Under the pieces are notes generated by a model, which searched no databases, was not told the DNA's origin, and saw only the letters and a program-made list of their open reading frames with translations. Positions 34,806-52,647 of a stretch of 64,000 nt of DNA are shown one piece after another (within the stretch, counting starts at the first letter, position 1; every line of letters starts with the position of its first letter). A program made the translations under genes and the position numbers. This DNA is from Escherichia phage 4MG. The stretch lies in the sequence record NC_022968.1; one strand, written 5' to 3'.

Positions 34806-34834
34806 ATGCAAAAAGCCGGGGATTATCCCGGCCT
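34806..34834 (-). terminator. rho-independent terminator (minus strand)
   Basis: Minus-strand hairpin GGCCGGGATAATCCCCGGC followed by TTTTTGCATAT, just after the stop of gene 34853-35062. Confidence 0.7.
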
Positions 34835-34852
34835 TACTTGGTGTGACTTTGA

Positions 34853-35484: not shown

Positions 35485-35862
35485 TTACTGATAAGCGGGA
35501 TCGTTGGTGATGTCGATCCAATGAGTTAAATCAATTTTGCCTTTTTCTTTCATTTTCTCGATCAGGCGGTCGGCTAATGTCTCAGAACGAACATAAACAT
35601 TCTCGCTAAAATCCTGGCCTGTTTCATCGTCGATCATTTCGCAATATTCGATTTTACCGATGAAAGCATGATTCAAGGCGTAAGTTTTACCAGTAAACCA
35701 GTTGTGTAAATGAATCTCGCATTTATAATCATCGCTACGGCCTTCAGTAGTCATAACGTCGATCAGATCACCTTTGAAAACTGAAAGATTCCACATGAGA
35801 TCTTTAGTTTTACCGCCAAAATCTTTAGTTTCTACGGTTGAAGCCAGGTTAATGATCGACAT
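35485..35862 (-). CDS. hypothetical protein
   Basis: First gene of a minus-strand unit; RBS AGAGGTAAATCA. Confidence 0.5.
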   Translation of the reverse strand: MSIINLASTVETKDFGGKTKDLMWNLSVFKGDLIDVMTTEGRSDDYKCEIHLHNWFTGKTYALNHAFIGKIEYCEMIDDETGQDFSENVYVRSETLADRLIEKMKEKGKIDLTHWIDITNDPAYQ

Positions 35863-35945: not shown

Positions 35946-36358
35946 AATAGCTCTTTACATAACTTTACACTATTCACTGTTTGCATCTTTATGCATCGCT
36001 ATGCAATTCATTTCATGGTGAAATTACTTTTTAGGCGTTTTTCCGTGTCAAGCTATTTTTATATAGCCTTTAAACGTCCTGTAACGCGTTTTAAGCGGTT
36101 TTGCGTCCAGGCTGTACCCTAGCCCGTTTTAACGGAGATCTCCCCATATTCACTATTTTGCATAGGATTTGAGGGTGTAGTGATAATCATTCTCATCGCC
36201 CAGCGATTAGCCCCCGGCTAACTATCTAAATGATAGTGATTCTCATTACCGGAATAACAGGCACCTCCGGTGGCTTTCCTCCGGTGTCCATCGTTGCCGC
36301 TTCCACAAAAGAATAACAAAAACCGGGACAGAAAACAAGCCCCGGAATTGTAAAGATT

Positions 36359-36676
36359 TTAGCGGATATTTATCCCGGCGGGTAGCCAGTAGCCAGAATA
36401 ATGATCATGAGGTGTGAACCCGTGGGACGGCTTTATATATGTAACTGATAACCATTCTCGATCATCCAGATAAAGCGCCTCATCTATTGCCACCACAAAA
36501 CACAATTCACCTTCACGATCTTTAACGGTTGCGATAGCGTGTTTTTCTATCGCCTTTTCAAGTGCAGCCAGGCCGCGCCGGAATTGTTCCGGGCGTGTGC
36601 GGTAACCTAAGTTATCCTCAGGGCAAAGTCTGTTTAAGGTAGCCCAGCTAACCGCAATCATTTTTTGAAGTGTCAT
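36359..36676 (-). CDS. hypothetical protein
   Basis: Trimmed to ATG with minus-strand AAGAGG RBS. Confidence 0.45.
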   Translation of the reverse strand: MTLQKMIAVSWATLNRLCPEDNLGYRTRPEQFRRGLAALEKAIEKHAIATVKDREGELCFVVAIDEALYLDDREWLSVTYIKPSHGFTPHDHYSGYWLPAGINIR

Positions 36677-36686
36677 TGTCTGCCTC

Positions 36687-37163
36687 TTATCTGTAACGGT
36701 GCATTGATTCACGATAGACCGATCCGCCGTCGAACTTCTCCGCACTTCTCAGGGCGTCCACTAGCTCGCACATTTTGCGGAGTACATACGAACAATGATC
36801 ATTAAAGTCAATGGCTTTTTTAATCATTTCCTCTTTACTCTCCCCATCAATAAAGACAAGTTGATCAAGGGCGTTATAGTGATCAAGCCAGGCGCGGATC
36901 GCGTCATGCTCCAGGGGGCGATCTGTCTGGCTAAAACTTGACAGGCCGAAAGATTCAAAAGTGTTTACATTGTCCATTAATTCATCATAAGCGGTTTCCC
37001 AGCTACTAGCCCAGAACTCAACCGCATCAGATTGAAAATCAGGATCATCAGGGTCAATAAAACAGATTGAAAAAAGTTGCAGGCCTTCACGCTTTGTTAA
37101 GGTATAGCGAGCACTATCAAGGGCGCGTGTTTTGGTGTCTTCTGGGGTGATTTCATATTTCAT
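36687..37163 (-). CDS. hypothetical protein (start uncertain)
   Basis: Track ORF trimmed to internal ATG. Confidence 0.4.
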   Translation of the reverse strand: MKYEITPEDTKTRALDSARYTLTKREGLQLFSICFIDPDDPDFQSDAVEFWASSWETAYDELMDNVNTFESFGLSSFSQTDRPLEHDAIRAWLDHYNALDQLVFIDGESKEEMIKKAIDFNDHCSYVLRKMCELVDALRSAEKFDGGSVYRESMHRYR

Positions 37164-39846: not shown

Positions 39847-40082
39847 TACGCCACCTCTTCAAAAGTCGATTCCCAGGCCCCGTGATAATCAACGCCGTTT
39901 TCGGTGTCCTCATCACAAGAGTGGATATTATCAAAAAGTTCGCCGGATGTATAGCCCTCATTCAACATTTCGAAAATTCTTTCTTGTGCTGATTCTTCTA
40001 AAAAATCCGCGTGGCGGTCTAATACTTCACCGTTATTATCTGACTTTTTCCACCAATAAGAGATTTTGATTTCGCGTTTCAT
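39846..40082 (-). CDS. hypothetical acidic protein
   Basis: Trimmed to ATG (MKREIKISYWW...). Confidence 0.45.
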   Translation of the reverse strand: MKREIKISYWWKKSDNNGEVLDRHADFLEESAQERIFEMLNEGYTSGELFDNIHSCDEDTENGVDYHGAWESTFEEVA

Positions 40083-40189
40083 TTTTCGGACTCCAGAATG
40101 ATATGGATAGCGACAACAGAGCAAGCCGCTACGATGAAAGATACCAGCGCCGCCACACACCAAAGGTTTGTATAATCTAACATTTTCAT
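40079..40189 (-). CDS. small membrane protein (36 aa)
   Basis: Below track cutoff; minus-strand AGAGAGG RBS; ATGA overlap. Confidence 0.3.
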   Translation of the reverse strand: MKMLDYTNLWCVAALVSFIVAACSVVAIHIILESEK

Positions 40190-40259
40190 TACCTCTCTTT
40201 AAGTGGTGGCATTATTGCCGCCTATGAATAAAGATACCATAAGCGGCGCAGATTGCAAG

Positions 40260-40550
40260 TTATTTTTTGATCTGGTTTGTGCGGTTATAGTCCTCATACC
40301 GTACACGGGACACGGTGACCGATTGAGGGAGGAGGCAACGCACACGATCCGCGCGGTTGTCATATTTCTGGATATGTGCCGGGGTATTGTTGCGGGTAAA
40401 CTTCACGCGTAAACGTAATTTTGTTGGATCACGGTCATCGATCCCGGTGACCACACCGAACCCAATTTGACCATAATTATGATAAACCATTTTGCCCAAG
40501 TATTTGTTTTCAAGAGCATTTTTAGTCAGAGCATTCATTACTTTACACAT
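40260..40550 (-). CDS. hypothetical protein
   Basis: First gene after promoter region; RBS AAAAGGTAAATATCATG. Confidence 0.5.
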   Translation of the reverse strand: MCKVMNALTKNALENKYLGKMVYHNYGQIGFGVVTGIDDRDPTKLRLRVKFTRNNTPAHIQKYDNRADRVRCLLPQSVTVSRVRYEDYNRTNQIKK

Positions 40551-40589
40551 GATATTTACCTTTTGGTTGTGTGGGCTTCACTATGTCGC

Positions 40590-40635
40590 CCTACGTGTTA
40601 AATATTAACAGATTCACGCCAGGACGCAAGAAAAT
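40590..40635 (-). promoter_or_regulatory. sigma70-type promoter (minus strand), conserved family
   Basis: Minus-strand TTGCGT - 16 nt - TAATAT followed by conserved CGTAGGGCGAC. Confidence 0.45.
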
Positions 40636-40839
40636 TATTAAATCTTTACAATATTCACTGTTTTGCATAAGTATTCAATGATATGCAAATAGTTTCACGT
40701 TGTTACTAAATTTAAGCCCTTTTGAGCGTGGCGCGGTTTCGTGATACCGCTTTAAAGCTCCTGTAAGCCTCTCTAAGCGCTTCAACGTCGAACCCTGGCA
40801 AGTGCATCACCTCGCGGAGAAGTCCCCAAATTCACTTTT

Positions 40840-40873
40840 TTGCATAGAAAAAAGGCCGGGGATCGTCCCGGCC
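40840..40873 (-). terminator. rho-independent terminator (minus strand)
   Basis: Minus-strand GGCCGGGACGATCCCCGGCC followed by TTTTTTCTATG, just after the stop of gene 40879-41082. Confidence 0.75.
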
Positions 40874-40878
40874 TCTTG

Positions 40879-41082
40879 TTAGTCAGTTTGTACGGCTTGC
40901 CACTGTAAAGCACGTTTGCGATCCGCCAACCGTTTATTGAGATTTGGATCATAACGGTCTGGCGTCCAGGTTTTGGCAACGCGTTCCGGCTTGTGTAATT
41001 TGTCGTTACGTTGGCGGCGCTCGTTTACTTCACCATAAGCCAGGCGATCACGCTTGCTTGTCATCTTCTCAATATTTCGCAT
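40879..41082 (-). CDS. hypothetical basic protein
   Basis: ORF ending at the terminator. Confidence 0.45.
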   Translation of the reverse strand: MRNIEKMTSKRDRLAYGEVNERRQRNDKLHKPERVAKTWTPDRYDPNLNKRLADRKRALQWQAVQTD

Positions 41083-41096
41083 TCTAAACCCTCGTT

Positions 41097-41444
41097 TTAT
41101 TTTCGTTTGTTGTATACATGTTCAATGATCCGGCCTTGCTGTTCTGCTAGCTCATTAGCTCGCCATTCTATGATCTCGGTTATCTGCTCTTTTGTGCCTT
41201 CTTTGTGATACGTGATAAACCCGCCACGCTTTTTCACTTCACACAATAGCCCGTTACCCTCAAGATCATTTAATGCCCCAGATCGCCGGGTGTGGTAGTG
41301 CTTACCGTGGAACCTATATTCAATATAATGATACACTTTCCCGATCCTGTATTCGTAGTAAATCCAGAGCACTCCCCGCCATAGCCTGGCGGGGATCTTC
41401 CAGTAAATAGCAGCAGCAGCTACCAAAAACAGGATTTTAAACAC
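41097..41444 (-). CDS. hypothetical protein with N-terminal membrane anchor
   Basis: Hydrophobic N-terminus. Confidence 0.45.
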   Translation of the reverse strand: MFKILFLVAAAAIYWKIPARLWRGVLWIYYEYRIGKVYHYIEYRFHGKHYHTRRSGALNDLEGNGLLCEVKKRGGFITYHKEGTKEQITEIIEWRANELAEQQGRIIEHVYNKRK

Positions 41445-41446
41445 TG

Positions 41447-42013
41447 TTAATAATCCTCTAACATTTCGCGCAGGGCTTCCAGTTCCTCACCTGTAAAGAT
41501 CTTGCGGAGTTCCTCGCCTGTTTTCTGGCAAGCAAGATAAATCTCTAAACCTTTGCGGCTATCCTCATCATAACCCATGTTAGCGCAAAAATCAGCATGA
41601 GTTTCTGATCCACAATCAGCATCAGCTAGCAGGCAGTAAAGCACGTTTGCGGCGCAAGGTGTCGCAACATATACACGGTAACCGAAAGACATTGCTTTAT
41701 TATTGTTGCGTTTGTAATCGTCGCGTGTCCAGTTTTTCTGATCCACTTGTGCAACTTTCGCGCCAACTTTCGCAAGCTCTCGCGCATCAGTCGGAGTTAC
41801 GCCACCGTTACGGCCTACACGGTGCCCGGTTCCCGTTTTAAATTCAGTGCGGTAAACGTTAGCGCCCTTTTCGAAACTCACAAAAAACAGATCCGCTTCC
41901 CACTTAGGATCATTGTTAACGCCGCCATATTGAGCATTAAAAGTAATGCCCTTTTCTTTCAGGAAGTTAGAAACGGCTACGTCTTGATCGTTGAAAGTGA
42001 TTTTGTTATTCAT
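41447..42013 (-). CDS. hypothetical protein
   Basis: 188 aa ORF. Confidence 0.5.
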   Translation of the reverse strand: MNNKITFNDQDVAVSNFLKEKGITFNAQYGGVNNDPKWEADLFFVSFEKGANVYRTEFKTGTGHRVGRNGGVTPTDARELAKVGAKVAQVDQKNWTRDDYKRNNNKAMSFGYRVYVATPCAANVLYCLLADADCGSETHADFCANMGYDEDSRKGLEIYLACQKTGEELRKIFTGEELEALREMLEDY

Positions 42014-42108
42014 GATATTTTACCTTTTGTTTGGTTTGGCATTATTGCCGGGTTATTTCTCTTACTTGGTGGAGCTATCTTAAAGCCCCACCTATTAAGA
42101 GTCAACAA

Positions 42109-42294
42109 CTATTTAATAATTTCTTTGCCGAAAGAATCAAAAGAGGCGATCACTTTTAGATTATCATCTAACAGCTTGCCGGGGATCTTTAGATTGTTGA
42201 TCCGTTGGCTAGCCTCTTGTTTAACGTCCTCAATAGTGCGGCTTGCCGAATTGAAGATCGTTAAAACTTGCCCGTTATCCATGCTTACAACCAT
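42109..42294 (-). CDS. hypothetical protein
   Basis: ORF. Confidence 0.4.
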   Translation of the reverse strand: MVVSMDNGQVLTIFNSASRTIEDVKQEASQRINNLKIPGKLLDDNLKVIASFDSFGKEIIK

Positions 42295-42295
42295 T

Positions 42296-42691
42296 TCACA
42301 CCGCCTTTAAATAATTGTTAGTTACTCGGTAAACGTGGCGATAAGCTTGTTTTTTGGTGTGCGGCGCATAGGTCATAGACTGATAAGCCAGATCATAACC
42401 GATTTTTTCAAGCCAGTAAAGCGCGGCGCTTTGCCCTTCATTGTGTGATTGTTCCCGGCGGCGTGGCGATTCCAGGACGGTGACGCCGAACCCGGTATAA
42501 CCATTTTGCACGGACAGAAGATCCCCACGGTGAAGCGTGGCGCGGTATTTGTTGATCGTGTTACCGTTGACATCTCGCCCAAAATCAAAGGAATCAATGA
42601 CCACGAAAAAATCCCCGGTTGTCTGGCGTGAAACTTCTTTCAGGCGGTTAACAGCGTCATACAGATTGATTGAGGTTTTAAACTTTGCCAT
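42296..42691 (-). CDS. hypothetical protein
   Basis: Leader hairpin plus TAAAGGTAAAGAAAATG. Confidence 0.5.
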   Translation of the reverse strand: MAKFKTSINLYDAVNRLKEVSRQTTGDFFVVIDSFDFGRDVNGNTINKYRATLHRGDLLSVQNGYTGFGVTVLESPRRREQSHNEGQSAALYWLEKIGYDLAYQSMTYAPHTKKQAYRHVYRVTNNYLKAV

Positions 42692-42711
42692 TTTCTTTAC
42701 CTTTAGTCAGT

Positions 42712-42729
42712 GCCGGGAACCGTCCCGGC
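42712..42729. repeat. GC-rich leader hairpin (family member)
   Basis: GCCGGGA-ACCG-TCCCGGC. Confidence 0.6.
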
Positions 42730-42770
42730 TTGAGTAGAATTATCGGCTTTTCTTGCCGGGGTGTCAATAC

Positions 42771-43064
42771 TTACAGAAGATTTTTTAATTCTTCGTAAGT
42801 GGCGGCGCTAATCTCGGTTACAGATTTAACACGTACAACATGAGCGCCACAATCAGACCAATAACCGCTTTCGTTCACTTCGTCGATATCATCGAAAGAA
42901 TAATGGGCGGCGGCGCAACGGTTTTCCGCTTCGTTGGTTGCATCTTCCAGGGAGTGATCAACAATAAGATCCACGGTCGGGAATTCTTTCCCATCATACA
43001 TGCAATAGATACGGGCAAGGAAAAATTTTGCTGGGGCGGTAGTGGTTTTGTTTGTAGTAGTCAT
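42771..43064 (-). CDS. hypothetical acidic protein
   Basis: Leader hairpin plus AAAAGGTAATACAAAATG. Confidence 0.5.
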   Translation of the reverse strand: MTTTNKTTTAPAKFFLARIYCMYDGKEFPTVDLIVDHSLEDATNEAENRCAAAHYSFDDIDEVNESGYWSDCGAHVVRVKSVTEISAATYEELKNLL

Positions 43065-43085
43065 TTTGTATTACCTTTTTTGTGT

Positions 43086-43104
43086 GGCGGGAACTATTCC
43101 CGCC
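43086..43104. repeat. GC-rich leader hairpin (family member)
   Basis: GGCGGGAA-TAG-TTCCCGCC. Confidence 0.6.
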
Positions 43105-43144
43105 TTGATTTGTAATATAATCGATCTAGCTTAGGATTGCAAAT

Positions 43145-43342
43145 TTATTTTGCAACATAATCCGGGTTAGGTGTACGGCGTTCAATGATCCGGGCTTCGT
43201 ACCCGTTGCGGCGATAATCTTTCTTTGTTGCTCTCGCATCAGACCAATTTGCCTCGGCGCAGGAATCCTCCCAGCCGTTGCAGGTTCTTTCCTGTACGAT
43301 GATTTCATAAAGCCATTTATTAACACGCGGAGCCTTTGCCAT
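43145..43342 (-). CDS. hypothetical protein
   Basis: RBS GAGGTAAACGAAATG; preceded by a hairpin-containing promoter. Confidence 0.5.
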   Translation of the reverse strand: MAKAPRVNKWLYEIIVQERTCNGWEDSCAEANWSDARATKKDYRRNGYEARIIERRTPNPDYVAK

Positions 43343-43373
43343 TTCGTTTACCTCGTTTTGTTTCGGTTTTGGT

Positions 43374-43403
43374 ATTATGCGCCGGATTCCCGGCGCTTGT
43401 CAA
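43374..43403 (-). promoter_or_regulatory. sigma70-type promoter whose spacer is a GC-rich palindrome
   Basis: Minus-strand TTGACA - AGCGCCGGGAATCCGGCG - CATAAT; spacer is a family hairpin. Confidence 0.5.
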
Positions 43404-43405
43404 AT

Positions 43406-43735
43406 TTATTTTCTTGCCATATGAGCAGCAAGCCGGGCGGCAACCTGGGATCGCTTATGCATTACCGGGATCGGCTTGCCGTTTGCGTCGTGTACATAGG
43501 ATACACGGGGCGCTTTGCGGTTGCGATAGCCTGCTTTTACTTCCAGCGTAACAACCGGGGCGCGTTCCATTTCAGCACGTTGATCGGCGGTGTCCTGGAT
43601 TGCTTCAACCATAACGCCGGGGATCACTTGCCAGCGTTTACCAGCAGGGGCGGCGGTGCCGTTGTCGATCACTTTGCCACCGTTAGATTTTGCAGCAGTA
43701 CGGGCAAGGGCGCGAGAATTGAAATAGTTATTCAT
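43406..43735 (-). CDS. hypothetical basic protein
   Basis: Track ORF trimmed to ATG (MNNYFNSRAL...). Confidence 0.45.
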   Translation of the reverse strand: MNNYFNSRALARTAAKSNGGKVIDNGTAAPAGKRWQVIPGVMVEAIQDTADQRAEMERAPVVTLEVKAGYRNRKAPRVSYVHDANGKPIPVMHKRSQVAARLAAHMARK

Positions 43736-43825
43736 GGTGTAACCTCGTTTAGTGTGGTTGTTTGTTTCGCTTGTCAATGTCCGGGAAGTATAACCCCAGA
43801 CATTAACCAGCGTCAACAATTATTT

Positions 43826-44122
43826 TTATTCTTCGGTGTCGTCATCAGGATCACCGTAAGCACTAGGGATCGGGGTGTTACAGTTATCACAAGGCAGATC
43901 CGCGCCTTCCCAGTAGACATCCACGCCAGCAGGCATCCAGGCCGGATCGCATTCGTCCCTTAATTCTTCCAGCAGGCGGGGGAAGTTTTCACGGGTACAC
44001 TTTGAACAAAGGCAACCGCCATCACGCATGATCAAAATTTTCGGATACCCGCCGAACTCATACGGGTGACGGATATAATTTTTTACAGTGCCGATCAATT
44101 GCTTGTTAGCGGAAATTTTCAT
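43826..44122 (-). CDS. Cys-rich acidic protein
   Basis: CLCSKC ... CDNC cysteines; leader hairpin plus GAAAGGTAAAACAGAATG. Confidence 0.5.
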   Translation of the reverse strand: MKISANKQLIGTVKNYIRHPYEFGGYPKILIMRDGGCLCSKCTRENFPRLLEELRDECDPAWMPAGVDVYWEGADLPCDNCNTPIPSAYGDPDDDTEE

Positions 44123-44143
44123 TCTGTTTTACCTTTCGTTAGT

Positions 44144-44162
44144 GCCGGGGCGCGTCCCCGGC
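44144..44162. repeat. GC-rich leader hairpin (family member)
   Basis: GCCGGGG-CGCGT-CCCCGGC. Confidence 0.65.
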
Positions 44163-44195
44163 TTGTTAGTAAGATAGCCGATCCGAACCTGGGGA

Positions 44196-44726
44196 TCAAG
44201 CTACTTTTAAAATATTTTTCAGGCCGTCGATATTAGACAGCAGATCCGCGCCTGCTTTCTTTGCAGCTTCCAGGGCTTCGGAGTCGATCCCGTTTTCCTT
44301 GTAAACATCTTTTGCAGCGTCGATCAATGTTTCATCGTCATCATAGGAATAATCGAAACTACATCCCATCGTTTCGCCGTCCAGGAGTGTGATCCCGTTT
44401 GCGGTAGCAGTTACCACGAAACCATAATCACTAGCGTTTAAATCGCGCTCTAATGCCTCTTGTGCGGCCTTGTAAGCGTTAGCCGATGGATTCTCATCAC
44501 CCTGGCTTATCAGGTGTGCGATCCTTTCTTTCAAGCTGTATTGAAGCGGGATCGCGTACTTGTAAGAGTTTCGGCAGGCTTGCGGATTTTTAACCGTTAC
44601 CCCACCTTCGTGATCGTCGGTCATTTCCCATTGATCCGCGAACCCGGTAAACTCATTAAAGTTAACAACGTTAACAGTAAAATCAATGCCGTTTGAAGAG
44701 TAGTTGAAAGTTTCGATAGTGTCCAT
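44196..44726 (-). CDS. highly acidic protein, first gene of a minus-strand unit
   Basis: 176 aa rich in Asp/Glu; RBS AAAAGGTAAAGCAAATG; directly downstream of a promoter. Confidence 0.5.
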   Translation of the reverse strand: MDTIETFNYSSNGIDFTVNVVNFNEFTGFADQWEMTDDHEGGVTVKNPQACRNSYKYAIPLQYSLKERIAHLISQGDENPSANAYKAAQEALERDLNASDYGFVVTATANGITLLDGETMGCSFDYSYDDDETLIDAAKDVYKENGIDSEALEAAKKAGADLLSNIDGLKNILKVA

Positions 44727-44764
44727 TTGCTTTACCTTTTGTGTGTGGGCGGCGGTGTGTCGCC

Positions 44765-44800
44765 CTGATGAGATGAATAGTAAGCGCTTTACTAATTGCC
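44765..44800 (-). promoter_or_regulatory. sigma70-type promoter (minus strand), conserved family
   Basis: Minus-strand TTGACG - 17 nt - TACTAT followed by CAGGGCGAC. Confidence 0.5.
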
Positions 44801-44850
44801 GTCAATACCCCTGGATGAAAATATTTTAAAAATCTTTTTGCCCGGTGTGG

Positions 44851-44878
44851 TTGCATCCCGGCGGGGATCGTGTACTAT
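44851..44878 (+). promoter_or_regulatory. sigma70-type promoter (plus strand), divergent from the minus-strand promoter
   Basis: TTGCAT - 16 nt - TACTAT, preceded by AAAATCTTTTTGCC element. Confidence 0.45.
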
Positions 44879-44908
44879 ATAAAGACACACACAAGAGAGG
44901 TAAACGAA

Positions 44909-45100
44909 ATGGAAAACGGGAAAGTAGTTGCAAGCGAAACAATGGTAACCCTGTACACCTGGGAGAGTGAGCGCGGAGCGCCCCAGGTTAGGATCGTGCC
45001 TTTGCCGTTTGCAGAACGTGCGAGCGTGTCCGGGTTTTACTATGGCACAAAGGCGGTGAGTGAGTCCGGCGCGGTGTTATGGGATAGCAGGGAAGACTAA
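44909..45100 (+). CDS. hypothetical small protein
   Basis: Trimmed to ATG after AGAGAGGTAAACGAA. Confidence 0.4.
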   Translation: MENGKVVASETMVTLYTWESERGAPQVRIVPLPFAERASVSGFYYGTKAVSESGAVLWDSRED

Positions 45101-45120
45101 AAAATCTTTTTGCCTGGGGC

Positions 45121-45149
45121 TTGCAATCCGTGCGGCCCTGGGTTATATT
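45121..45149 (+). promoter_or_regulatory. sigma70-type promoter with no ORF downstream
   Basis: TTGCAA - 17 nt - TATATT, preceded by a second copy of AAAATCTTTTTGCC; no RBS-led ORF follows. Confidence 0.45.
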
Positions 45150-45475
45150 TATCAGACAGAAGAGAAAACGCCACTCCACGGCGAAAAGGCGGGGCTAACG
45201 TACCGGGCGCGGGTGCCAGGTCGGAAGGTGGATCGCCGGTAGTTCGTCTGAATGACATTTGTAAAGATTTGTAAAGATGGTTGATCCTGGGGTTGGTTCT
45301 GCTATTATTATCACATAGCGGGAACATTGAAACCGGAGTACAAAACACCGGGGGTGCCTGTCATTCTGCAAATGATAATGATTATCATTCAACAAGCTAA
45401 ATGAGAATGCTTCTCATTCCGCATAAAAATTTATCTTGACATCGAGTGTGCTTGTGTGAGAAAATTATTGATCCC

Positions 45476-45681
45476 AAAAAATTTTTTCGCGTCTATAGAA
45501 AAAATACGTTTTTGAAACTGAAAAGTCGATCGAGAACCGGGCGCAAAAATTTTTTCGAGAGCGAGAAAAAATACGATCTCGATTTTGAAAAATCGATCGA
45601 GAACCCAATCTCTACCGAGAAAAATTTTTTGAGCAGTATAGAAAAAATACGATCTTGAAAACGAAAAAGTGATCGAGTACC
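45476..45681. repeat. three imperfect tandem direct repeats (~62 bp unit)
   Basis: Units at about 45476, 45545 and 45621 sharing AAAAATTTTTTCG...AGAAAAAATACG...TCGATCGAGAACC. Confidence 0.7.
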
Positions 45682-45907
45682 TGAAGTTTTACTCCCGAAA
45701 TATTGGAGATAAGTTTTGCAGTTTTTTGAGATATTTGTCCAGATGTGACAGTTGTTTTTGCAGTAAATTCATACAGTTACGTGCATGTTTTTGAGATATG
45801 TGGCAGGTTGTTTTCGAGATCTTTATTCACAAAATATTGGATTTACCTGGACACTTCAGCAGAGGCCGTTTCGAAAACCATTTCGATTTTCATTTTGATT
45901 TCTGGTT

Positions 45908-45942
45908 CAAAATATCCAGGCAAATATCAGGTCAAATATCAC
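45908..45942. repeat. short iteron-like repeats
   Basis: CAAAATATCCAGGCAAATATCAGGTCAAATATCAC (AAATATC three times). Confidence 0.5.
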
Positions 45943-45949
45943 ACGGTTT

Positions 45950-46774
45950 TCATTTCGGTTCCTTACCGAAAATATCTCTCCACATACAAATATCATAGCT
46001 CTTGTGGTGCGCCATCTCATACATCTGAATTTCTTCGTCTGTTGGATGCAAGATATCCATGAAAAGATGCTTTATATCTGAGGTGTTAAACGTTGAAGAA
46101 ACCCCGTCTATGGTGGTATGGATAGCCAGTTCACCATATGCCTTTGTCAGGTGGATACGGTCTTTACCATTCATGATGGTTACACGATCATCTTGCACTG
46201 CAATCCAACTATCCACACCGATAACCATATCACTTGGTGTGCTTGCATGGACCAAAAGCTCTATGACCGTGCTGGTTGGGATGATACTGTTCAGGTAATC
46301 CCTTTGCCACTCATTCCATCCACGCTCCTGGAGGCATCTACGCAATACAAAATCGCATCTAAGCTCGTTAGTGGCATCTCCAACGATATAGTTAAACTCA
46401 TCCGAGATCTCGGCTCTGTCCATTTTGTTGTCGAGGGATAAAATATCTTTTGCCATGTTATCAGCACGGCGAGCAACATTAATCAAGCTCCACGTCAAGG
46501 CCTCTATTTGACGTTCAAGCGCCTCAACGTAGGCTTGGTAATCAGCAATCTCAGAACTCTTTGCATAGGACTTAAGTTCTTCAAGCTCCGACGCGACCTT
46601 GCCCTTCTGCTTATCAAAGTCAGTTTCATCATCTGGATCACTTGAAAACTCAAGATATGATAGCTCATGCTCTGTGCTTTCATAGATCTTTTTCAGGTCT
46701 GTCTCGATGTCTGGGACATCAAACTTCTTTTTGTGGTGTGGGACGATCTCTGTTGTGTGAAATACTGTAGTCAT
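45950..46774 (-). CDS. hypothetical protein
   Basis: 274 aa ORF. Confidence 0.5.
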   Translation of the reverse strand: MTTVFHTTEIVPHHKKKFDVPDIETDLKKIYESTEHELSYLEFSSDPDDETDFDKQKGKVASELEELKSYAKSSEIADYQAYVEALERQIEALTWSLINVARRADNMAKDILSLDNKMDRAEISDEFNYIVGDATNELRCDFVLRRCLQERGWNEWQRDYLNSIIPTSTVIELLVHASTPSDMVIGVDSWIAVQDDRVTIMNGKDRIHLTKAYGELAIHTTIDGVSSTFNTSDIKHLFMDILHPTDEEIQMYEMAHHKSYDICMWRDIFGKEPK

Positions 46775-46896
46775 CTAAAAGCTCCTGTAAGCTCTTCTGA
46801 GCGTTTCTAATCAAAGGCTGTACGTTCGCCTACCTTACATGCTAAAAACCCCGTAGAACTCGATTGGTGAGCTTTACGGGGCATTGTGGTGTCATT

Positions 46897-47046
46897 TTAC
46901 TGACCGTGCTTCTGACTCATCTGATATTTCATCCAAGCCATGTTCATTTTGTGCTTCACATCGTATGTGATCGGGAGATTACCGAATAGAAAATAGCTCA
47001 GGTCATAAAGCTTCTCCCAAAATTTAAATATCAGTTTCTCTTTCAT
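46897..47046 (-). CDS. hypothetical small protein (49 aa)
   Basis: Below track cutoff; minus-strand AAGGAG RBS. Confidence 0.3.
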   Translation of the reverse strand: MKEKLIFKFWEKLYDLSYFLFGNLPITYDVKHKMNMAWMKYQMSQKHGQ

Positions 47047-47167
47047 CCTCGATCTCCTTCAGTAGTCGTTTTGCTTTCGCAAATATGAATCCTCTAGCTG
47101 AACCTCTTGGAGATGCATCGCACAACTCTTTCAGCATCTCATATAGTTTGGTTTCTTTATCTGTCAT

Positions 47168-47512
47168 TCACCCTCCGTTCTTTTCTATACCAAGGATCAT
47201 CCCCTGGAGTTGTTGTTTCATCGGGATCAATGCTGGGAAGTCGTCTACCCAGACATCCGGAACCCAACCCGCTTTTGCACAAACTGTAGCCTTCTGTACA
47301 CCACCACAGTAGATGATGTCAATGCCAAGTTTCTCAGCCCAGTATTCGATGTCTTCATTGCGATCCGTTTCATGTCGGAAGGTAACGAACTTCACCGACC
47401 AACCAGACCCACGAGAACAAAACAGGTGGACAAACTCAGCCCACCGTTGAGGGTCGAGGGTGAAGGTATCATCGAAGTCAAGCGCTATCCGCTTACTTTC
47501 AAATGGCTTCAC
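47168..47512 (-). CDS. small HAD-like protein
   Basis: IALDFDDTFT contains the DxDxT motif; GTG start. Confidence 0.4.
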   Translation of the reverse strand: MKPFESKRIALDFDDTFTLDPQRWAEFVHLFCSRGSGWSVKFVTFRHETDRNEDIEYWAEKLGIDIIYCGGVQKATVCAKAGWVPDVWVDDFPALIPMKQQLQGMILGIEKNGG

Positions 47513-47847
47513 AGCGCCCCCGGATCTGCATTCTCACAACGATCCCACTTGCCACACTTCTTATCAACGTAGTGCTCAAGGCGACGTTGGACTGTTTCTA
47601 CGATTGCTGGCATGTCATCCTCACGAGGATTAATGCAGTCCTGAAGTTCAAGCAGGAAGGCCAGATCGATTACACAGTTGATAACATCAGCAATCTCACC
47701 GATTGCAGGTTCATCGCAACGCCAAGGGCGATTAAGCGCTCTTGACAGTTCACCAACTTCCTCTACGAGATTCTTAAACACTGAATCAACAGTCCGGGCT
47801 TGCGCCCGAACCGAGGACTGGAGTACGCGTTCAGCGATTCCTGTCAT
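47509..47847 (-). CDS. MazG-like nucleotide pyrophosphohydrolase
   Basis: EEVGELSRAL ... EIADVINCVIDLA matches the MazG fold motif. Confidence 0.5.
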   Translation of the reverse strand: MTGIAERVLQSSVRAQARTVDSVFKNLVEEVGELSRALNRPWRCDEPAIGEIADVINCVIDLAFLLELQDCINPREDDMPAIVETVQRRLEHYVDKKCGKWDRCENADPGAL

Positions 47848-48491
47848 TTAGACTCCTTCTCCTTTGCCTTTTCTGCTTCGGCAGCTTTGGCAGAAGCATC
47901 AAGCTCTTCAGTGTACTTCTTGATTTGAGCATCAAGGTACTTGATCGTGCTATCAGCCAGTTGCTGAGTACGAGGTGACTCAACCACGTTCTGACCTACA
48001 TATGCTGCCAGCATCTTGTACGCAGTCTCTTTCTGAGGCATGAAGTTGGCATACAGAATACCGATGAAGCAAACAATCATGCCAAACACAGCGATCTTAC
48101 GTGGTCCTTTGGTCATATCACGCTTAGGAACAGGTTGTTGTTCTTGTTCACGGCGTGGCGGTGCAGTAACTTCGCCAAGAACTTCAAATCGCAGCCAACC
48201 GGAAGTCTCGCCATTTGGATACCGAACTTTCAAAGTTCCATCGTTATCGACGGTTGTGATTACCAGCACATCCCCAGTCTTTAAATTGATCCAGTCCTTA
48301 GTCAGGACAAGGTTCTGACCGAGATAGAAGCCGTAGCTCTCTTTTTTACCGTCAGTCTCTTCATAACATTTCTGGATAGCATACATGATCACATATGCTG
48401 CGCCAGCGATAAACATCAGGAAACCCCAACCGCTGTAAGTACCGTCAGTGGTGAGTACATCAATTAAGTAAATCAGAAAAGGCCATGACAT
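47844..48491 (-). CDS. membrane protein
   Basis: Multiple hydrophobic segments; Lys/Glu-rich C-terminus. Confidence 0.5.
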   Translation of the reverse strand: MSWPFLIYLIDVLTTDGTYSGWGFLMFIAGAAYVIMYAIQKCYEETDGKKESYGFYLGQNLVLTKDWINLKTGDVLVITTVDNDGTLKVRYPNGETSGWLRFEVLGEVTAPPRREQEQQPVPKRDMTKGPRKIAVFGMIVCFIGILYANFMPQKETAYKMLAAYVGQNVVESPRTQQLADSTIKYLDAQIKKYTEELDASAKAAEAEKAKEKESK

Positions 48492-48748
48492 CAGTTATTC
48501 TCCTCTACGTAAGAAACAGTTGTGGAAGGATCATTTTTACTTCCACCGTAATTTGTGTGGGTGGTTGAGTTAGGGCAGCGAACTACGTACAGAGTTCTCT
48601 GTCCACGCTCAGATGAAGACACCCGGTAAATATGACAATCCCGAAGACCATCTGGTAGTTCATAAATTCCAGTTTTTTCCTCTGAAGGATATGGACCACA
48701 ACCAGATAATATCATCGTAACAGCCAGCAATGCAAGAACTTTTCTCAC
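48491..48748 (-). CDS. lipoprotein
   Basis: Signal peptide MRKVLALLAVTMILSGC with lipobox LSGC. Confidence 0.55.
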   Translation of the reverse strand: MRKVLALLAVTMILSGCGPYPSEEKTGIYELPDGLRDCHIYRVSSSERGQRTLYVVRCPNSTTHTNYGGSKNDPSTTVSYVEENN

Positions 48749-48759
48749 TTAATTTCCCC

Positions 48760-48963
48760 TTACGGAATCTCAGCCTTTCGATTATCAACACACATGACAG
48801 TGGGGATAGGTTTGGTAGAGAAATCCTTGATCTTATCTTTGCCGTTGCAAAACTCAACAGCCCACTTGAATGCCCCTTCATCACGGCTAACGCCAGAAAA
48901 GACCACAGCAAAAACAAACAATGAAAGAAAAATACCAACCATAAAATAGTATGGATTACTCAT
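48760..48963 (-). CDS. small membrane protein
   Basis: Trimmed start; one hydrophobic segment. Confidence 0.4.
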   Translation of the reverse strand: MSNPYYFMVGIFLSLFVFAVVFSGVSRDEGAFKWAVEFCNGKDKIKDFSTKPIPTVMCVDNRKAEIP

Positions 48964-49232
48964 GTTGTTGTCGGCTCCGCGCCGCCCCCAGTTGATTCGT
49001 CGCATTTAGAAGCTCCTGTCGCCCATGCCTCCGAGCACATTGAACTTCCACACACATCTGAAGTGACTCACATCACTTCCTCTTGGAACTAACTATACAC
49101 TAACAAATCTTTAGATCAAGTGTTTTTTATAAAGATCTTATTTTTATTTGTTTATATCTTTATTATTTAGTTCTTTATTATATCGTAGGTCGTTTTTGTC
49201 ACCCCTCCACCTACGTTTTTGGCAGGGGTTGG

Positions 49233-49529
49233 TTACTTCTTAATCAGTTCATCAAGAGGAATGTACAGACTGGTTTTGCCGGGTCTTTCTACCACTTCGA
49301 GGTAACCTAGTGCCTCTAAAGTTTTAAGAGACCTCTGTACACTTCGTGGGCTAACACTAGTTGCTTCCGCAATGGTGTTAACTGACTCTACAAACTCTGC
49401 TCCCTTGCTCTGGAAGAACTGCCACCTGAACTTAATATACAGGTAGACCCGGAGGTCTGTTGACGAGACCTCCGGATTTGACAGGATTCCATACGAGCAT
49501 AAAACACTGAAAGACTTATCTATTCTCAT
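49233..49529 (-). CDS. helix-turn-helix DNA-binding protein
   Basis: IAEATSVSPRSVQRSLKTLEALGYL resembles a winged-helix HTH. Confidence 0.45.
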   Translation of the reverse strand: MRIDKSFSVLCSYGILSNPEVSSTDLRVYLYIKFRWQFFQSKGAEFVESVNTIAEATSVSPRSVQRSLKTLEALGYLEVVERPGKTSLYIPLDELIKK

Positions 49530-49912
49530 GCTGTCTCCAGATAGTCTTTCAGATATTCGATGACGTAGCTACGTGCATAGTTCTCATCAGCATCGTTATG
49601 CCACATTTTAGTGACAACACCAGTCAATTTGTATAGTGAACGTTCAAAATGGTTCATCCCCGGAAGAATACTCACCATAAAATCCTCTTCCTCACTAATT
49701 TCAAGAGGATTAACAGTGAAGTCTGGTTGAACTAGTGTCTCCCAGGCTCCATTTTTGAACCGTTTTAAGGTCAAGGCACGACGATTTGAAGAGGTAAGAT
49801 ACTCAGAGTAGTCATCCCCCTGGTGAAAACCGATCCTGACCATAGCCCCACTGTACATAAAATCAACATCCACAGTGAGGCGCTCTACCTTCAGCCTATT
49901 TTGCGTGTTCAT
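49526..49912 (-). CDS. hypothetical protein
   Basis: ATGA overlap. Confidence 0.45.
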   Translation of the reverse strand: MNTQNRLKVERLTVDVDFMYSGAMVRIGFHQGDDYSEYLTSSNRRALTLKRFKNGAWETLVQPDFTVNPLEISEEEDFMVSILPGMNHFERSLYKLTGVVTKMWHNDADENYARSYVIEYLKDYLETA

Positions 49913-51332
49913 CTAAGTCAACAGCCCTCCCAAATGGTGGGTCGTACTTGGATTTGTTACGTCCACACAGCACCCACAACGTATCCCACTTCTTACCCCA
50001 GTCTTTTTTGCGTGAGGTAAGGTCTTCAATGTACCCATCAGTGAAGATTATCACATCTTTTGCATCAGGGATATTCTTTTCGATGTATTCAAAGGCAACA
50101 CCAGCGCGTGTACCACCTGTGGAAGTCACATTATAGTCCAGCATCTCCTTGATGTTATCCTGTGTGTACACTTTCACTTCCCCAACCATCGTAGACCAGC
50201 AGAAAAGTGTTACCCGGAAGCACTTATACAGGGTGCACAGGCCAATAATCTCATTGAATATCCTGGTCATGGTCTGTCTGCTGATAGAACCCGACACATC
50301 GAAGCATACAACGATGTCGATTGTCTCAGATTGCTTCCTTCCCGGAAGAATAATGCTCTGTTTGTGGGTGATTGCCCCATAATTACGCAGTACCTGGGTC
50401 ACCGAGCCAGACCTACGAGCGGGTTTACGGTACGAAAGGTGCGACCTCACACGAGAAACCATACGTTGTTTAATGATTTTCATGTAGTCAATGTGTGGTT
50501 TCCGCATTCTTGCAATCAATTCCCGCGCTTCTTTCGGCCCTTCACCCCCGGCAGCACTCATTGCAGCATCAATCAGCCCAGCAGACCACGCAAGATTCTC
50601 ATCTTTGGCGATTGGGCCGAGGCTTGGGTGCGGGTCTACATACCCAAGGATGTCACGCTCAGGGTCATAATCCCCGATATGTGTACCCATAGGGTTGCCA
50701 GTAACCGCTTTCCCATTGTAGATCATCTCGTAAATTTCTTCTGCTGTCTTGTTTTGGAATGCAAAATCACAATAGCAGTAGGCAAGGAATCCAAATTCTT
50801 TGTCTTTATTGAACTTAGTTTGCGCCCCCAGAGGGAAGAACTTCAGGGTTTTATTCCTTGGCCCCAAGTCTCCAGCCACCAAATCTGTGTTGATGTACTG
50901 ATCCGCTGCGATATTGTACATCTTGGAGTTGAAGCTTTTACCACGGGCCATATGGTCGTTGGTGATATGGCGTATTTCATGCATGAGAATAACCACCACT
51001 TCTTTTGGTGTTTTCTTGCGATAGAATACGTCTACATACGTCTTGTAATCATCCTTCTGTTGTTGTGTCATTGTTGGATGATTGTCAATACGATCAAACA
51101 CTTTCTTTTTGCGCTCTGCTGGCATACCCATAATGAACTCAGGGTTGTAATACAGATTACGATGGTCTGTTGCAGCCGTTGGCAACCAACGCCAGTCAGC
51201 GATGATCGGTAAAGAACTCAGCAAAGTTCCGTAAAATGGGCGATGTTGCAGCAATGCAATACGTGCTGACTGAATTAGTTTTAGCGCTTCATCTTGAAGC
51301 TTAGAGATCATCTCAGATTCATCTTTGTACAC
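49896..51332 (-). CDS. metallopeptidase-like / von Willebrand factor A domain protein (DUF2201-like architecture)
   Basis: HEIRH (HExxH) in N-terminal half; DVSGSI (MIDAS DxSxS) in C-terminal half; start set at GTG with GGAG RBS. Confidence 0.55.
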   Translation of the reverse strand: MYKDESEMISKLQDEALKLIQSARIALLQHRPFYGTLLSSLPIIADWRWLPTAATDHRNLYYNPEFIMGMPAERKKKVFDRIDNHPTMTQQQKDDYKTYVDVFYRKKTPKEVVVILMHEIRHITNDHMARGKSFNSKMYNIAADQYINTDLVAGDLGPRNKTLKFFPLGAQTKFNKDKEFGFLAYCYCDFAFQNKTAEEIYEMIYNGKAVTGNPMGTHIGDYDPERDILGYVDPHPSLGPIAKDENLAWSAGLIDAAMSAAGGEGPKEARELIARMRKPHIDYMKIIKQRMVSRVRSHLSYRKPARRSGSVTQVLRNYGAITHKQSIILPGRKQSETIDIVVCFDVSGSISRQTMTRIFNEIIGLCTLYKCFRVTLFCWSTMVGEVKVYTQDNIKEMLDYNVTSTGGTRAGVAFEYIEKNIPDAKDVIIFTDGYIEDLTSRKKDWGKKWDTLWVLCGRNKSKYDPPFGRAVDLDEHAK

Positions 51333-51344
51333 AGTTATCTCCAA

Positions 51345-51372
51345 ATAAAAAAGGCCATCTATATGATGGCCT
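51345..51372 (-). terminator. rho-independent terminator (minus strand)
   Basis: Minus-strand GGCCATCATATAGATGGCC followed by TTTTTTATTT. Confidence 0.65.
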
Positions 51373-51381
51373 GATTATAAT

Positions 51382-51645
51382 TCACTCTTCTACAGGATGC
51401 AAGAACTTTTGTGGTAAAAAGTGATCAAGCCCTTCTATTCTGAAACACCAGGCCAACTGAGCACCAGGAGCACCGGGGAAATGTGGGATAGCAAACAAGA
51501 CAATCCCATCAACTTTTCCAATTACGAGTCGCCCCATAGAGGTTGTTGATACCTTTTGACCGAACTTGATATCCGGAATAAAGCCTGCATCCAACATTTT
51601 CTTTTCAGGAGCCGACGCGGGTCGGCCCAGCATTTCTTCGTACAT
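51382..51645 (-). CDS. hypothetical protein
   Basis: TAATG overlap with upstream gene. Confidence 0.45.
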   Translation of the reverse strand: MYEEMLGRPASAPEKKMLDAGFIPDIKFGQKVSTTSMGRLVIGKVDGIVLFAIPHFPGAPGAQLAWCFRIEGLDHFLPQKFLHPVEE

Positions 51646-52577
51646 TACACCACCTTGTTGAGCATCGCAGCAATCTTAGGCAGGCCCATCTCTGTCTGAA
51701 TGATCAGTTGGGTCAGCGCCTTTTCCATTTTCTTCGACACAATGATGAAGTTGTCTTTAGCAAAACCAACTTTAAGGTCCATAATCAGGATCGCCTTTGG
51801 TTCACCAGACAGCTTCTCTCCGGTCAGAGAGCAGGTATTGCGAATATACTTCGCTTTGAACTGTGCATAGGTCACAGAAACGTTCATACCAGCGTCGGAG
51901 AATGTCTTGCAGTAGTTGGCGTAGGCCAGCGCTACAGCAACATCATCAGGCAGTTTTTGCTTCTCTTCCGCTGGTGCTGTAGTTTCTTCTGCAACCGGAG
52001 GCTGTTTATGGAAGTGCTGTTCAGCAAGTTCCATTGCGGAAGACGCGGTGCGCTCTTTAGGTTCCGGGTGACGTGGAAAATCTTCTGCAACAACAGGTTT
52101 TTCTACAACTTCTGAAGTATCTACTGGCATTTCTTTCTCCTCTTTTGGAATATATTTGGTTTTCAGTTTTTCCATGTGCTCTTTTGACATGTTGAGCATC
52201 ATTGCTTGTACGATTTCACGGTCAAGTGGCTCAATTATAGTGATTGCCGTCTTCTTGTCAACCAAACAATCTTTCAGTTCGTTAGCACGTTGAAGAACAA
52301 CACAGACGTTACCACGTACATAACCCTTCTTATCGTTGATACGCTCAACGGTTGGGTACAGCGGGTCTTTTTCACCATGCACAGAGCGCATACTGAAGTC
52401 CATATTGGTATAGTCACATTTACCCATACCAAGAAGCTTTTCACCCATCATGAACCAGTCATCAAGGGTCAGACTGAATTCCAGGCCACGTTTCTTTGTG
52501 CGTTCAACCTTTTTACGGTAACGTTCCTCTAGACTTTTGATCTCACTGGCGGTAAATTTCTTTTTCACATCAAACAT
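51645..52577 (-). CDS. hypothetical protein with degenerate HNH_3-like segment
   Basis: ERINDKKGYVRGNVCVVLQRANELK resembles the C-terminal half of HNH_3; minus-strand AAGGAG RBS. Confidence 0.45.
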   Translation of the reverse strand: MFDVKKKFTASEIKSLEERYRKKVERTKKRGLEFSLTLDDWFMMGEKLLGMGKCDYTNMDFSMRSVHGEKDPLYPTVERINDKKGYVRGNVCVVLQRANELKDCLVDKKTAITIIEPLDREIVQAMMLNMSKEHMEKLKTKYIPKEEKEMPVDTSEVVEKPVVAEDFPRHPEPKERTASSAMELAEQHFHKQPPVAEETTAPAEEKQKLPDDVAVALAYANYCKTFSDAGMNVSVTYAQFKAKYIRNTCSLTGEKLSGEPKAILIMDLKVGFAKDNFIIVSKKMEKALTQLIIQTEMGLPKIAAMLNKVV

Positions 52578-52647
52578 TTTCTACTCCTTGGGTTATTCCC
52601 GTTCTTGTTGGGAGAATTATCCTGGATTGTGTCCCCACTGTCAACAC

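Follow-up and report, generated by a model that had tools for sequence, protein, structure and literature searches.

The locus examined here raises a simple question: what does a promoter transcribe when no gene lies behind it? The DNA concerned is a stretch of 64,000 nucleotides (nt) of Escherichia phage 4MG (sequence record NC_022968.1), hereafter the window, which is a Seunavirus-like member of the Vequintavirinae (rV5-like myophages, about 147 kb). An earlier note, made from the letters alone, had described two plus-strand promoters in it that share a duplicated upstream element; the first (P1) was said to drive a small open reading frame (ORF), and the second (P2) to be followed by about 200 nt of GC-rich, structure-prone sequence without an ORF, suggesting a small RNA (sRNA). 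Both promoters were found exactly where and as they had been described (Table 1). Our comparison with related phages indicates that the orphan promoter P2 is probably real and that it stands directly before a conserved non-coding element of about 90 nt, which we call module A and which is likely to be transcribed as a structured RNA of the plus strand.

Table 1. Features of the locus and related sites in the window (positions of the 64,000-nt stretch).
Feature	Position	Strand	Remarks
A/T-tract upstream element of P1, AAAATCTTTTTGCCCGG	44829-44845	+	one of two exact 17-mer copies; lies at about -57 to -41 relative to P1
P1, sigma-70-type promoter TTGCAT-N16-TACTAT	44851-44878	+	read from the sequence; a real gene follows
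Small gene, 63 amino acids, DUF7170 / phrog_4653	44909-45100	+	annotated as GAP31_044 in the relative GAP31
Second A/T-tract copy, AAAATCTTTTTGCCTGG	45101-45117	+	just upstream of P2
GC-rich hairpin, then UUAUAUUUAU	45112-45143	+	immediately behind the small gene's stop codon; -19.5 kcal/mol, z = -2.4
P2, sigma-70-type promoter TTGCAA-N17-TATATT	45121-45149	+	predicted transcript start about 45154-45156
Module A, conserved non-coding RNA element, about 90 nt	45154-45246	+	covariance model, covariation, strand evidence
Purine-rich leader	45154-45168	+	part of module A
H1, 4-bp hairpin	45169-45172 with 45180-45183	+	part of module A
Pseudoknot, H1 loop CUCC with GGGG	45174-45177 with 45191-45194	+	part of module A
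H2, long irregular hairpin	45195-45228	+	part of module A
Invariant tail, GAUCGCCGGUAG	45231-45242	+	part of module A
CpxR-type box GTAAAGATTTGTAAA, exact GTAAA-N5-GTAAA	45261-45275	+	its centre lies about 47 bp before the predicted start of P3 transcripts
P3, sigma-70-type promoter TTGATC-N16-TATTAT	45281-45308	+	TG before the -10; kept in all relatives aligned
Module B, second conserved non-coding element, ACAUAGCGGG...GAGUACAAAACACC...UGCCUGUCAUUC	45313-45366	+	
Fur-box-like palindrome 1	45371-45389		holds TGATAATGATTATCA (45373-45387), 15/15 to the 7-1-7 Fur core TGATAATnATTATCA
Fur-box-like palindrome 2, AATGAGAATGCTTCTCATT	45400-45418		
Six Fur-box-like palindromes of the window	33867-33885, 34017-34035, 36179-36197, 36229-36247, 45371-45389, 45400-45418		
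P4, promoter TTGACA-N18-GAAAAT, extended -10	45436-45465	+	reads into the repeats
Three iteron-like direct repeats, about 62 nt	45477-45681	+	spacing 67 and 76 nt; AT-rich

The stretch 45148-45420 matches 361 phage records, and it is also the only part of a 361-nt query over which the records of the Stephanstirmvirinae (Phapecoctavirus, Justusliebigvirus) align, at about 71-73% identity. Module A itself is kept in six phage genera or more and, besides, in Aeromonas phages; it is absent from FV3-type Vequintavirus, in which two units like module B, the second conserved element of the locus, are found instead. This conservation is not that of a protein: in line with the earlier note, no conserved ORF stands behind P2, since no frame is conserved on either strand of 45097-45348 and the tblastn matches to GAP31, KPP-1 and phAPEC8 switch frames. 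An 83-amino-acid minus-strand ORF and a 54-amino-acid plus-strand ORF over module A were rejected as coding, their frames not being conserved in tblastn. Nor does module A match a catalogued RNA family, as a cmscan search of 40000-50000 on both strands (E <= 1) gave no Rfam 15 match in 45100-45500, its sole match being a chance-level one at 47788-47837, and the window holds no tRNA or tmRNA. Outside phages, module A had no match in 5,426 E. coli genomes and only two borderline 28-nt matches (E = 0.6) in a plasmid collection. Its invariant tail, searched for in 100,044 bacterial species genomes, was met at 120 or more places, where about 280 would be expected by chance according to our own calculation; among the matches listed, none of the 80 bacterial loci searched with the covariance model of module A exceeded 21.8 bits, the phage copies scoring 53-98 bits. 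A packaging or terminal-site reading of the locus was dropped: a few related records do start near it, though by estimate no oftener than chance.

The structure of module A was modelled on an alignment of 23 distinct sequences, and this alignment favours a plus-strand RNA that would fold as an H-type pseudoknot followed by a long hairpin. Changes on both sides are seen in 10 of the 19 modelled pairs, and the covariation score is 0.208, compared with 0.080 +/- 0.011 after shuffling (0 of 500 reach it) and with at most 0.063 when the partners are slid. Of 22 sequences, 10 have G-C at one H2 pair and the other 12 have A-U, without exception and with both states occurring within Mydovirus, and three further H2 pairs are altered in a compensatory way in the Aeromonas-phage copy. 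For the pseudoknot most sequences have CCCC/GGGG, the window has CUCC/GGGG, two other loci (L032 and L040) have CCAA/UUGG and, by eye, an Aeromonas phage (L037), for which the script picked another H1 register, has CCAU/AUGG; two of the pseudoknot pairs have changes on both sides. The linker of the pseudoknot is A-rich, and the tail, seemingly unpaired, is invariant even in the Aeromonas phages. An outer helix GGCGG/UCGCC drawn by RNAalifold was invariant in the first sequence set and was rejected, its 5' strand being missing at L032, L033, L037 and L040, where the tail is still invariant. As to the strand, the modelled pairs contain 9 G·U cells and 2 A·C cells, which favours the plus strand, and the covariance model built from the alignment has one match in the window, at 45154-45246 and on the plus strand only (96 bits, E = 3e-29), while it gives the Aeromonas-phage copies 53-65 bits. 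A plus-strand RNA is therefore favoured by the G·U excess, by the model match confined to that strand and by conserved promoters of the same strand.

The promoters deserve the same scrutiny. The upstream element that P1 and P2 were said to share is indeed duplicated: the 17-mer AAAATCTTTTTGCCYGG has two exact copies in the 64 kb, one before each promoter (at 44829 and 45101), and even with 3 mismatches allowed only 0.57 matches would be expected in the window by chance. The consensus of the distal half-site of the UP element is AAAWWTWTTTT, of which the beginning of the 17-mer, AAAAATCTTTT, matches 10 of 11 positions, so the shared element resembles the distal half of an UP element; a similar upstream element, AAATTTTTCTTTGTCTGGGGCTTACAA, is found at the Aeromonas phage locus L028. 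The small ORF behind P1 is a real gene, as the product matches Pfam DUF7170 at E = 6e-25 and falls into phrog_4653, and in this the description of P1 stands. The hexamers of P2 agree with the consensus at 9 of 12 positions, but promoter-consensus matches in 3 kb are at chance level (6 found, 5.6 expected), so that the support for P2 has to come from comparison with relatives. At the same position, such hexamers with the 17-nt spacing recur in Mydovirus, Certrevirus, Phapecoctavirus, Justusliebigvirus and Avunavirus as well as in several unclassified phages; ABPH49, KP2025, A73 and 24-2-1 are among the phages that keep hexamers and spacing. In the relatives the promoter usually consists of TTGACA or TTGACG, 17 nt, and then TATACT, TATAAT or CATAAT, which is closer to the consensus than in the window, and the sequence of the spacer itself varies.

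What lies in this spacer is a second function. The -35 hexamer of P2 is inside the loop of the 45112-45143 hairpin and the -10 hexamer inside its U-rich tail, and this hairpin is a probable intrinsic terminator of the small gene; equivalent hairpins occupy the promoter spacers of relatives (z = -2.7 at L002 and z = -5.0 at L020). We conclude from these alignments that P2 would be both the terminator of the small gene and the promoter of module A. In Certrevirus phages (e.g., PBES02), the P2-type promoter is kept without any upstream plus-strand gene to terminate. In Pectobacterium phage PcCB7V (L026, about 860-960), module A and P3 are absent and the P2-type promoter is fused to module B at the usual distance. 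At L040, which is Klebsiella-phage-like, module A occurs twice in tandem (6298-6384 and 7036-7128, minus strand), and the divergent copy, which is the one that was read, has a hairpin-containing promoter of its own. Because of the PcCB7V fusion and the L040 duplicate, the modules behave as promoter-bearing cassettes, and each RNA module would appear to be a cassette that always carries a promoter. GC-rich and often palindromic spacers were also seen in other sigma-70-like promoters of the window, at 43403 (minus), 57618 (plus), 44199 (minus), 38141 (minus) and elsewhere, examples being TTGACA-AGCGCCGGGAATCCGGCG-CATAAT and TTGACA-GCCTCTTCGGAGGCTGT-TAATCT; terminator hairpins nested in promoters are seemingly the house style of this phage group.

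Downstream of module A there is neither an end signal nor a gene. No terminator-like site was found on the plus strand of 45000-46700; the hairpin inside P3 (-9.6 kcal/mol, z = -0.86), which is followed by U-rich sequence, is no better than shuffled sequence. There is no conserved plus-strand ORF within 6.5 kb downstream of module A, minus-strand genes fill 45950-52600, and the downstream plus-strand ORFs match no PHROG family, nor do their homologues in relatives. Lacking both a plus-strand terminator and a conserved downstream plus-strand ORF, module A does not qualify as the 5' untranslated region (UTR) of a gene or as a typical sRNA bounded by a terminator. The 5' UTR of a distant gene, which the earlier note had itself named as the finding that would speak against its sRNA, thus drops out, as no plus-strand gene follows for P2 to serve. 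The sRNA suggestion is supported in so far as a promoter-led, structured non-coding RNA is concerned; it does not hold for the size, as the element measures about 90 nt and not 200, and probably not for the type, as it lacks a terminator and has highly conserved loops, a pseudoknot and a tail that point less to an Hfq-type antisense sRNA than to a functional RNA with a fold of its own or to the leader of some longer non-coding transcript.

Alignment with the relatives also divides the 240-nt span marked in the earlier note, which, besides the overlap of P2 with a terminator-like hairpin, also holds P3, a GTAAA-N5-GTAAA box and module B. The region after P2 is a series of elements, namely module A, the CpxR-type box, P3, module B, the Fur-box palindromes, P4 and the iteron-like repeats, and the GC content changes along it: the first 100 nt or so after P2 have 61%, in keeping with the GC-rich sequence described before, whereas 45250-45349 has 39% and does not fit that description. 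All of this lies in a 1.2-kb gap (44727-45949) that is flanked by genes all on the minus strand and in which the 63-codon ORF at 44909-45100 is the sole plus-strand gene. The 1.26 kb around the locus is 89-93% identical to Escherichia phage LNA4, Cronobacter phage GAP31 and Enterobacter phage EC152, and 391 nt are 100% identical to an IMG/VR genome of 148,567 bp. In the records inspected, the 1.2-kb region is either without annotation or holds small hypothetical ORFs of no conserved frame. Such ORFs are annotated across modules A and B or the repeats at L002 (phAPEC8_00257), L003 (FV3_00182), L018, L016 and L027; as their frames are not conserved and those in the downstream repeats match no PHROG family, they are probably mis-annotations.

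The second cassette begins with a possible input from the host. The consensus of E. coli CpxR is GTAAA-N5-GTAAA (PMC9603713), and the window contains two exact sites of this type where 0.15 would be expected. Both lie just upstream of a -35 hexamer, one at 45261-45275, 6 bp before that of P3, and the other at 35954-35968 on the minus strand, before a TTGACG promoter. In CpxR-activated promoters a GTAAA-N4-8-GTAAA tandem repeat stands before the -35 hexamer. The box upstream of P3 is kept in most relatives; a phage-encoded protein could recognise the GTAAA repeat instead of CpxR. Module B contains two partly overlapping helices, each with compensatory changes, which are either alternative pairings or a pseudoknot, and its RNAalifold consensus amounts to only -0.65 kcal/mol. 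A paralogue of module B is present on the minus strand at about 36303-36250. It was observed there as part of a paralogous cassette (about 36360-36180, minus strand) directly after the stop of the ORF 36359-36745, consisting of a terminator-like hairpin with an embedded weak promoter (TTGTTT..TATTCT), the module-B-like element and two Fur-like boxes; past it come CGTTAAAACG-like repeats, two more promoters and then the ORF 35485-35862. A second copy of the cassette was also seen in the Klebsiella phages L007 and L009.

The palindromes behind module B resemble Fur boxes. In its 7-1-7 form the Fur core is TGATAATnATTATCA, and the window has 5 sites with at most two mismatches to the core, compared with 0.45 expected. 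The 19-mer Fur consensus is GATAATGATAATCATTATC (PMC4506495), with which palindrome 1, read on the minus strand, agrees at 16 of 19 positions. Sites like the 19-mer of this locus number 6 in the window, compared with 0.03 expected, and all of them are in non-coding regions. The offset of the first Fur-type box from module B, which it follows, is exactly 6 nt in almost all relatives, and in phAPEC8-like phages such boxes form arrays of up to four. Because the boxes are invariant across phages of Enterobacteriaceae and Aeromonas, their sequence suggests that a conserved host factor, and not a phage protein, reads them, and they could serve iron-dependent control or the titration of host Fur. Two Fur-like boxes were noticed within 33500-34850, a gene-poor and apparently non-coding region of about 1.3 kb downstream of a minus-strand terminator (about 34830-34808), which is rich in GATAAC/GTTATC-type repeats and has the appearance of a second large control region.

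Beyond the Fur-type boxes, P4 and the repeats complete the series. Comparable P4-like promoters were read in the sequences of relatives, and similar repeats follow the Fur boxes there. In the window, further repeats of at least three more families extend to 45976, in DNA of 31-38% GC with several GATC sites, and P2, P3 and P4 all point into 45477-45976. On this analysis the iteron region 45477-45976 may be a replication origin. Readings of the repeats as TyrR, ArgR or DnaA boxes were rejected as poor matches by eye.

The best explanation as a whole, to which we would give a probability of roughly 0.5, combines an RNA of module A driven by P2, a control region made of cassettes, a role at an origin and gating by CpxR and Fur. 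P2 would be a host-type sigma-70 early promoter with an UP-like A/T tract, built onto the terminator hairpin of the small gene, and would transcribe the plus strand from about 45154-45156 to yield an RNA of about 90 nt with the pseudoknot, the A-rich linker, the irregular hairpin and a single-stranded tail, GAUCGCCGGUAG. Module A would be the first of the tandem promoter-plus-structured-RNA cassettes in a 1.2-kb gene-free control region, the next comprising the CpxR-type box, P3 and module B and leading to the Fur-box palindromes, after which come P4 and the iteron-like repeats. Transcripts from P2 would pass P3 and module B and, together with those of P3 and P4, run rightward into the iteron region. 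Because no terminator and no gene follows it, module A is taken as a structured domain that would be bound by a protein or by RNA polymerase, in preference to an antisense seed, and it may form the 5' domain of non-coding transcripts that activate or prime an origin in the repeats, with the input gated by host envelope stress through CpxR and by iron status through Fur. Transcription, the binding of CpxR and Fur and the origin role are what we infer from the comparisons above, and the origin mechanism in particular is tentative, with the odds, in our judgement, against it.

Several points weigh against this explanation. The start, the end and the very existence of the module A RNA are predictions, and the hexamers of P2 sit inside a terminator-like hairpin, so that the promoter look may partly be a by-product of the terminator. 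In folding energy, 45154-45280 does not surpass shuffled sequence (z = +0.77 on the plus strand, -1.12 on the minus strand); as the energy is significant on neither strand, covariation is left as the support for the structure of module A, and the earlier term structure-prone is borne out by covariation and not by folding energy. A hairpin formed by single-stranded DNA could itself give rise to that covariation. Among the closer relatives H1 and most of the pseudoknot hardly vary; the support for them comes from a few divergent lineages (L032, L033, L040 and L037), of which L033 has one pseudoknot mismatch. L039 differs in its 5' domain and is at odds with the pseudoknot, and one internal H2 position is G·A in the window and many relatives. 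On the minus strand, the complement of H1 together with UUUUCUCUUC (45183-45160) scores as terminator-like, a site being called at 45183-45169. With regard to the origin, the GC skew in the window, which follows the direction of the genes, is of no help, no observation connects the iteron region with replication, and no mapped replication origin was found in the literature for this phage group.

A trans-acting RNA in the broad sense, binding a protein or pairing by a seed, is nearly as likely as the origin-linked domain. In its classical form, an sRNA whose leader or tail pairs as a seed with host or phage mRNAs and whose 3' end arises by processing or at the weak P3 hairpin, we consider it unlikely. 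Such an sRNA would suit a non-coding, conserved sequence which has a promoter directly upstream and in which the purine-rich 5' leader is single-stranded and the 12-nt tail invariant, and the hairpin of -9.6 kcal/mol with U-rich sequence behind it, which overlaps P3, might end the transcript. However, that hairpin (z = -0.86) is not a convincing end, no Rho-independent plus-strand terminator follows module A, and the strong conservation of the loops and of the pseudoknot is unusual for seed-pairing sRNAs. Somewhat less likely still is an element that works as DNA, providing binding sites or single-strand hairpins of an origin or control region while its transcript is incidental. Module A does adjoin AT-rich DNA with iteron-like repeats, its invariant tail contains GATC and CCGG sites, the conserved Fur-like and CpxR-like boxes nearby are DNA sites, and covariation alone is blind to the difference between RNA and a single-stranded DNA hairpin. 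Nevertheless, each module travels with a well-placed promoter, in the L040 duplicate and in PcCB7V as well, the ratio of G·U over A·C is 9 to 2, and pseudoknots with A-rich linkers are characteristic of RNA.

More improbable than these is an RNA of the minus strand, about 200 nt long, which would start near the Fur boxes, be repressed by Fur like the host sRNA RyhB and end at H1 and UUUUCUCUUC (45183 to 45160). The terminator-like site called there would fit its end and the -10-like TATCAT that overlaps Fur box 1, with a weak -35 (TTAGCT) 17 nt upstream, its start; moreover, the H1 stem gains two G·U pairs on the minus strand in most sequences, and folding z is slightly better on that strand (-1.12 vs +0.77). 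Yet this promoter is weak and not conserved, most relatives having TCTCAT where the window has TATCAT, whereas the promoters of the plus strand are conserved and near the consensus; the overall G·U and A·C counts favour the plus strand, and both PcCB7V and the module B paralogue at 36 kb are without module A and hence would be without the terminator. As an observation in its own right, the minus-strand site of H1 and UUUUCUCUUC could stop leftward read-through where the plus-strand RNA starts.

The two remaining alternatives are very improbable. If P2 were merely the terminator of the DUF7170 gene, with incidental hexamers and a spacer that is untranscribed or transcribed only from P3, this would account for the strong hairpin and U-rich tail right after the stop codon and for promoter-like matches no commoner than chance, but not for TTGACA or TTGACG exactly 17 nt from TAnnnT or CAnnnT in divergent lineages, including Certrevirus with no plus-strand gene upstream, and it would leave the conservation and covariation of module A without a reason. 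A cis-regulatory leader, a riboswitch or an antitermination RNA like HK022 put for a downstream plus-strand gene would agree with a promoter-proximal structured RNA that has conserved unpaired bases, a fixed distance from the transcript start and possible obstacles downstream (the P3 hairpin and the Fur sites), but over 6.5 kb no plus-strand ORF is conserved, the genes that come next all belong to the minus strand, and no Rfam riboswitch matches.

The proposal of a P2-driven module A RNA in an origin-linked control region has partial precedents. Promoters or primer transcripts are associated with the origins oriF and oriG of T4, with the primary origin of T7, where tandem promoters adjoin an AT-rich region, and, as RNA II, with that of ColE1, and at T4 oriE the small early genes repEA and repEB lie beside iterons. 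As in T4 oriF/oriG, T7 and ColE1, tandem promoters without a protein product point here into an AT-rich, repeat-bearing region; the structured 5' RNA recalls origin primer transcripts, and a small early gene lies beside iterons as in T4 oriE. Unlike those origins, the present locus has no mapped origin and no sequence similarity to them, and it has a pseudoknot with an invariant tail as well as host-regulator consensus sites interleaved with the promoters. Phages also make small non-coding RNAs from host-type promoters, such as the oop RNA and the PR' 6S transcript of lambda, which resemble module A in being short, non-coding and placed immediately after a sigma-70 promoter within the control region of a phage. 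These two end at defined terminators and act as antisense or antitermination substrates, while module A has no terminator or overlapping target gene and has a conserved pseudoknot. The put RNAs of HK022 are cis-acting, promoter-proximal RNAs that make RNA polymerase resistant to termination; like module A they are structured, about 70-90 nt long, just downstream of early promoters and without an ORF of their own. However, put consists of two stem-loops that serve downstream genes, and module A of a pseudoknot and a hairpin with no downstream genes.

For the regulator sites, precedents come from other phages. Cyanophages carry PhoB boxes. A Fur box has been found upstream of the sit operon in lambda-like coliphages (PMC6969025). 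As in both cases, host-regulator consensus sites stand beside phage promoters at the present locus; unlike in those cases, they flank non-coding RNA cassettes of virulent phages and not auxiliary metabolic genes, Fur-type sites are combined with CpxR-type ones, and the Fur boxes are downstream of a promoter in arrays of up to four. Our literature searches on this phage group turned up neither a description of module A nor one of sites for CpxR or Fur, and no relevant transcriptomes or sRNAs. Researchers have predicted 8,495 candidate structured RNAs in bulk from IMG/VR intergenic regions (PMC10690425), and module A may be one of these anonymous motifs, as it shares with them support by covariation, an intergenic position in phages, a size within about 65-150 nt and absence from Rfam; none of those candidates is described with this promoter, CpxR and Fur context. 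Module A would be a new RNA family within the phage non-coding RNAs of control regions, in an unusual modular context that seems to be tied to host signals.

The rV5-like and phAPEC8-like phages are in wide therapeutic and biocontrol use, and their early regulation and replication origins are unmapped. In module A they offer a definite candidate for a non-coding gene that experiments can address: a pseudoknot RNA that is conserved, comes with a promoter and matches no database entry. In the widest form of the idea, which we regard as doubtful, large virulent phages of enterobacteria and Aeromonas would have in common a modular control region of self-contained, CpxR/Fur-gated cassettes, each a promoter with an inbuilt terminator hairpin and then a structured RNA; modules A and B would be a new class of phage RNA that licenses replication at the iterons or captures a host factor, and, as a separate matter, arrays of Fur boxes on the replicating genomes would titrate Fur and so turn on the uptake of iron by the host. 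Exact matches to the CpxR and Fur consensus beside module A suggest that these virulent phages may sense the envelope stress and the iron status of their host.

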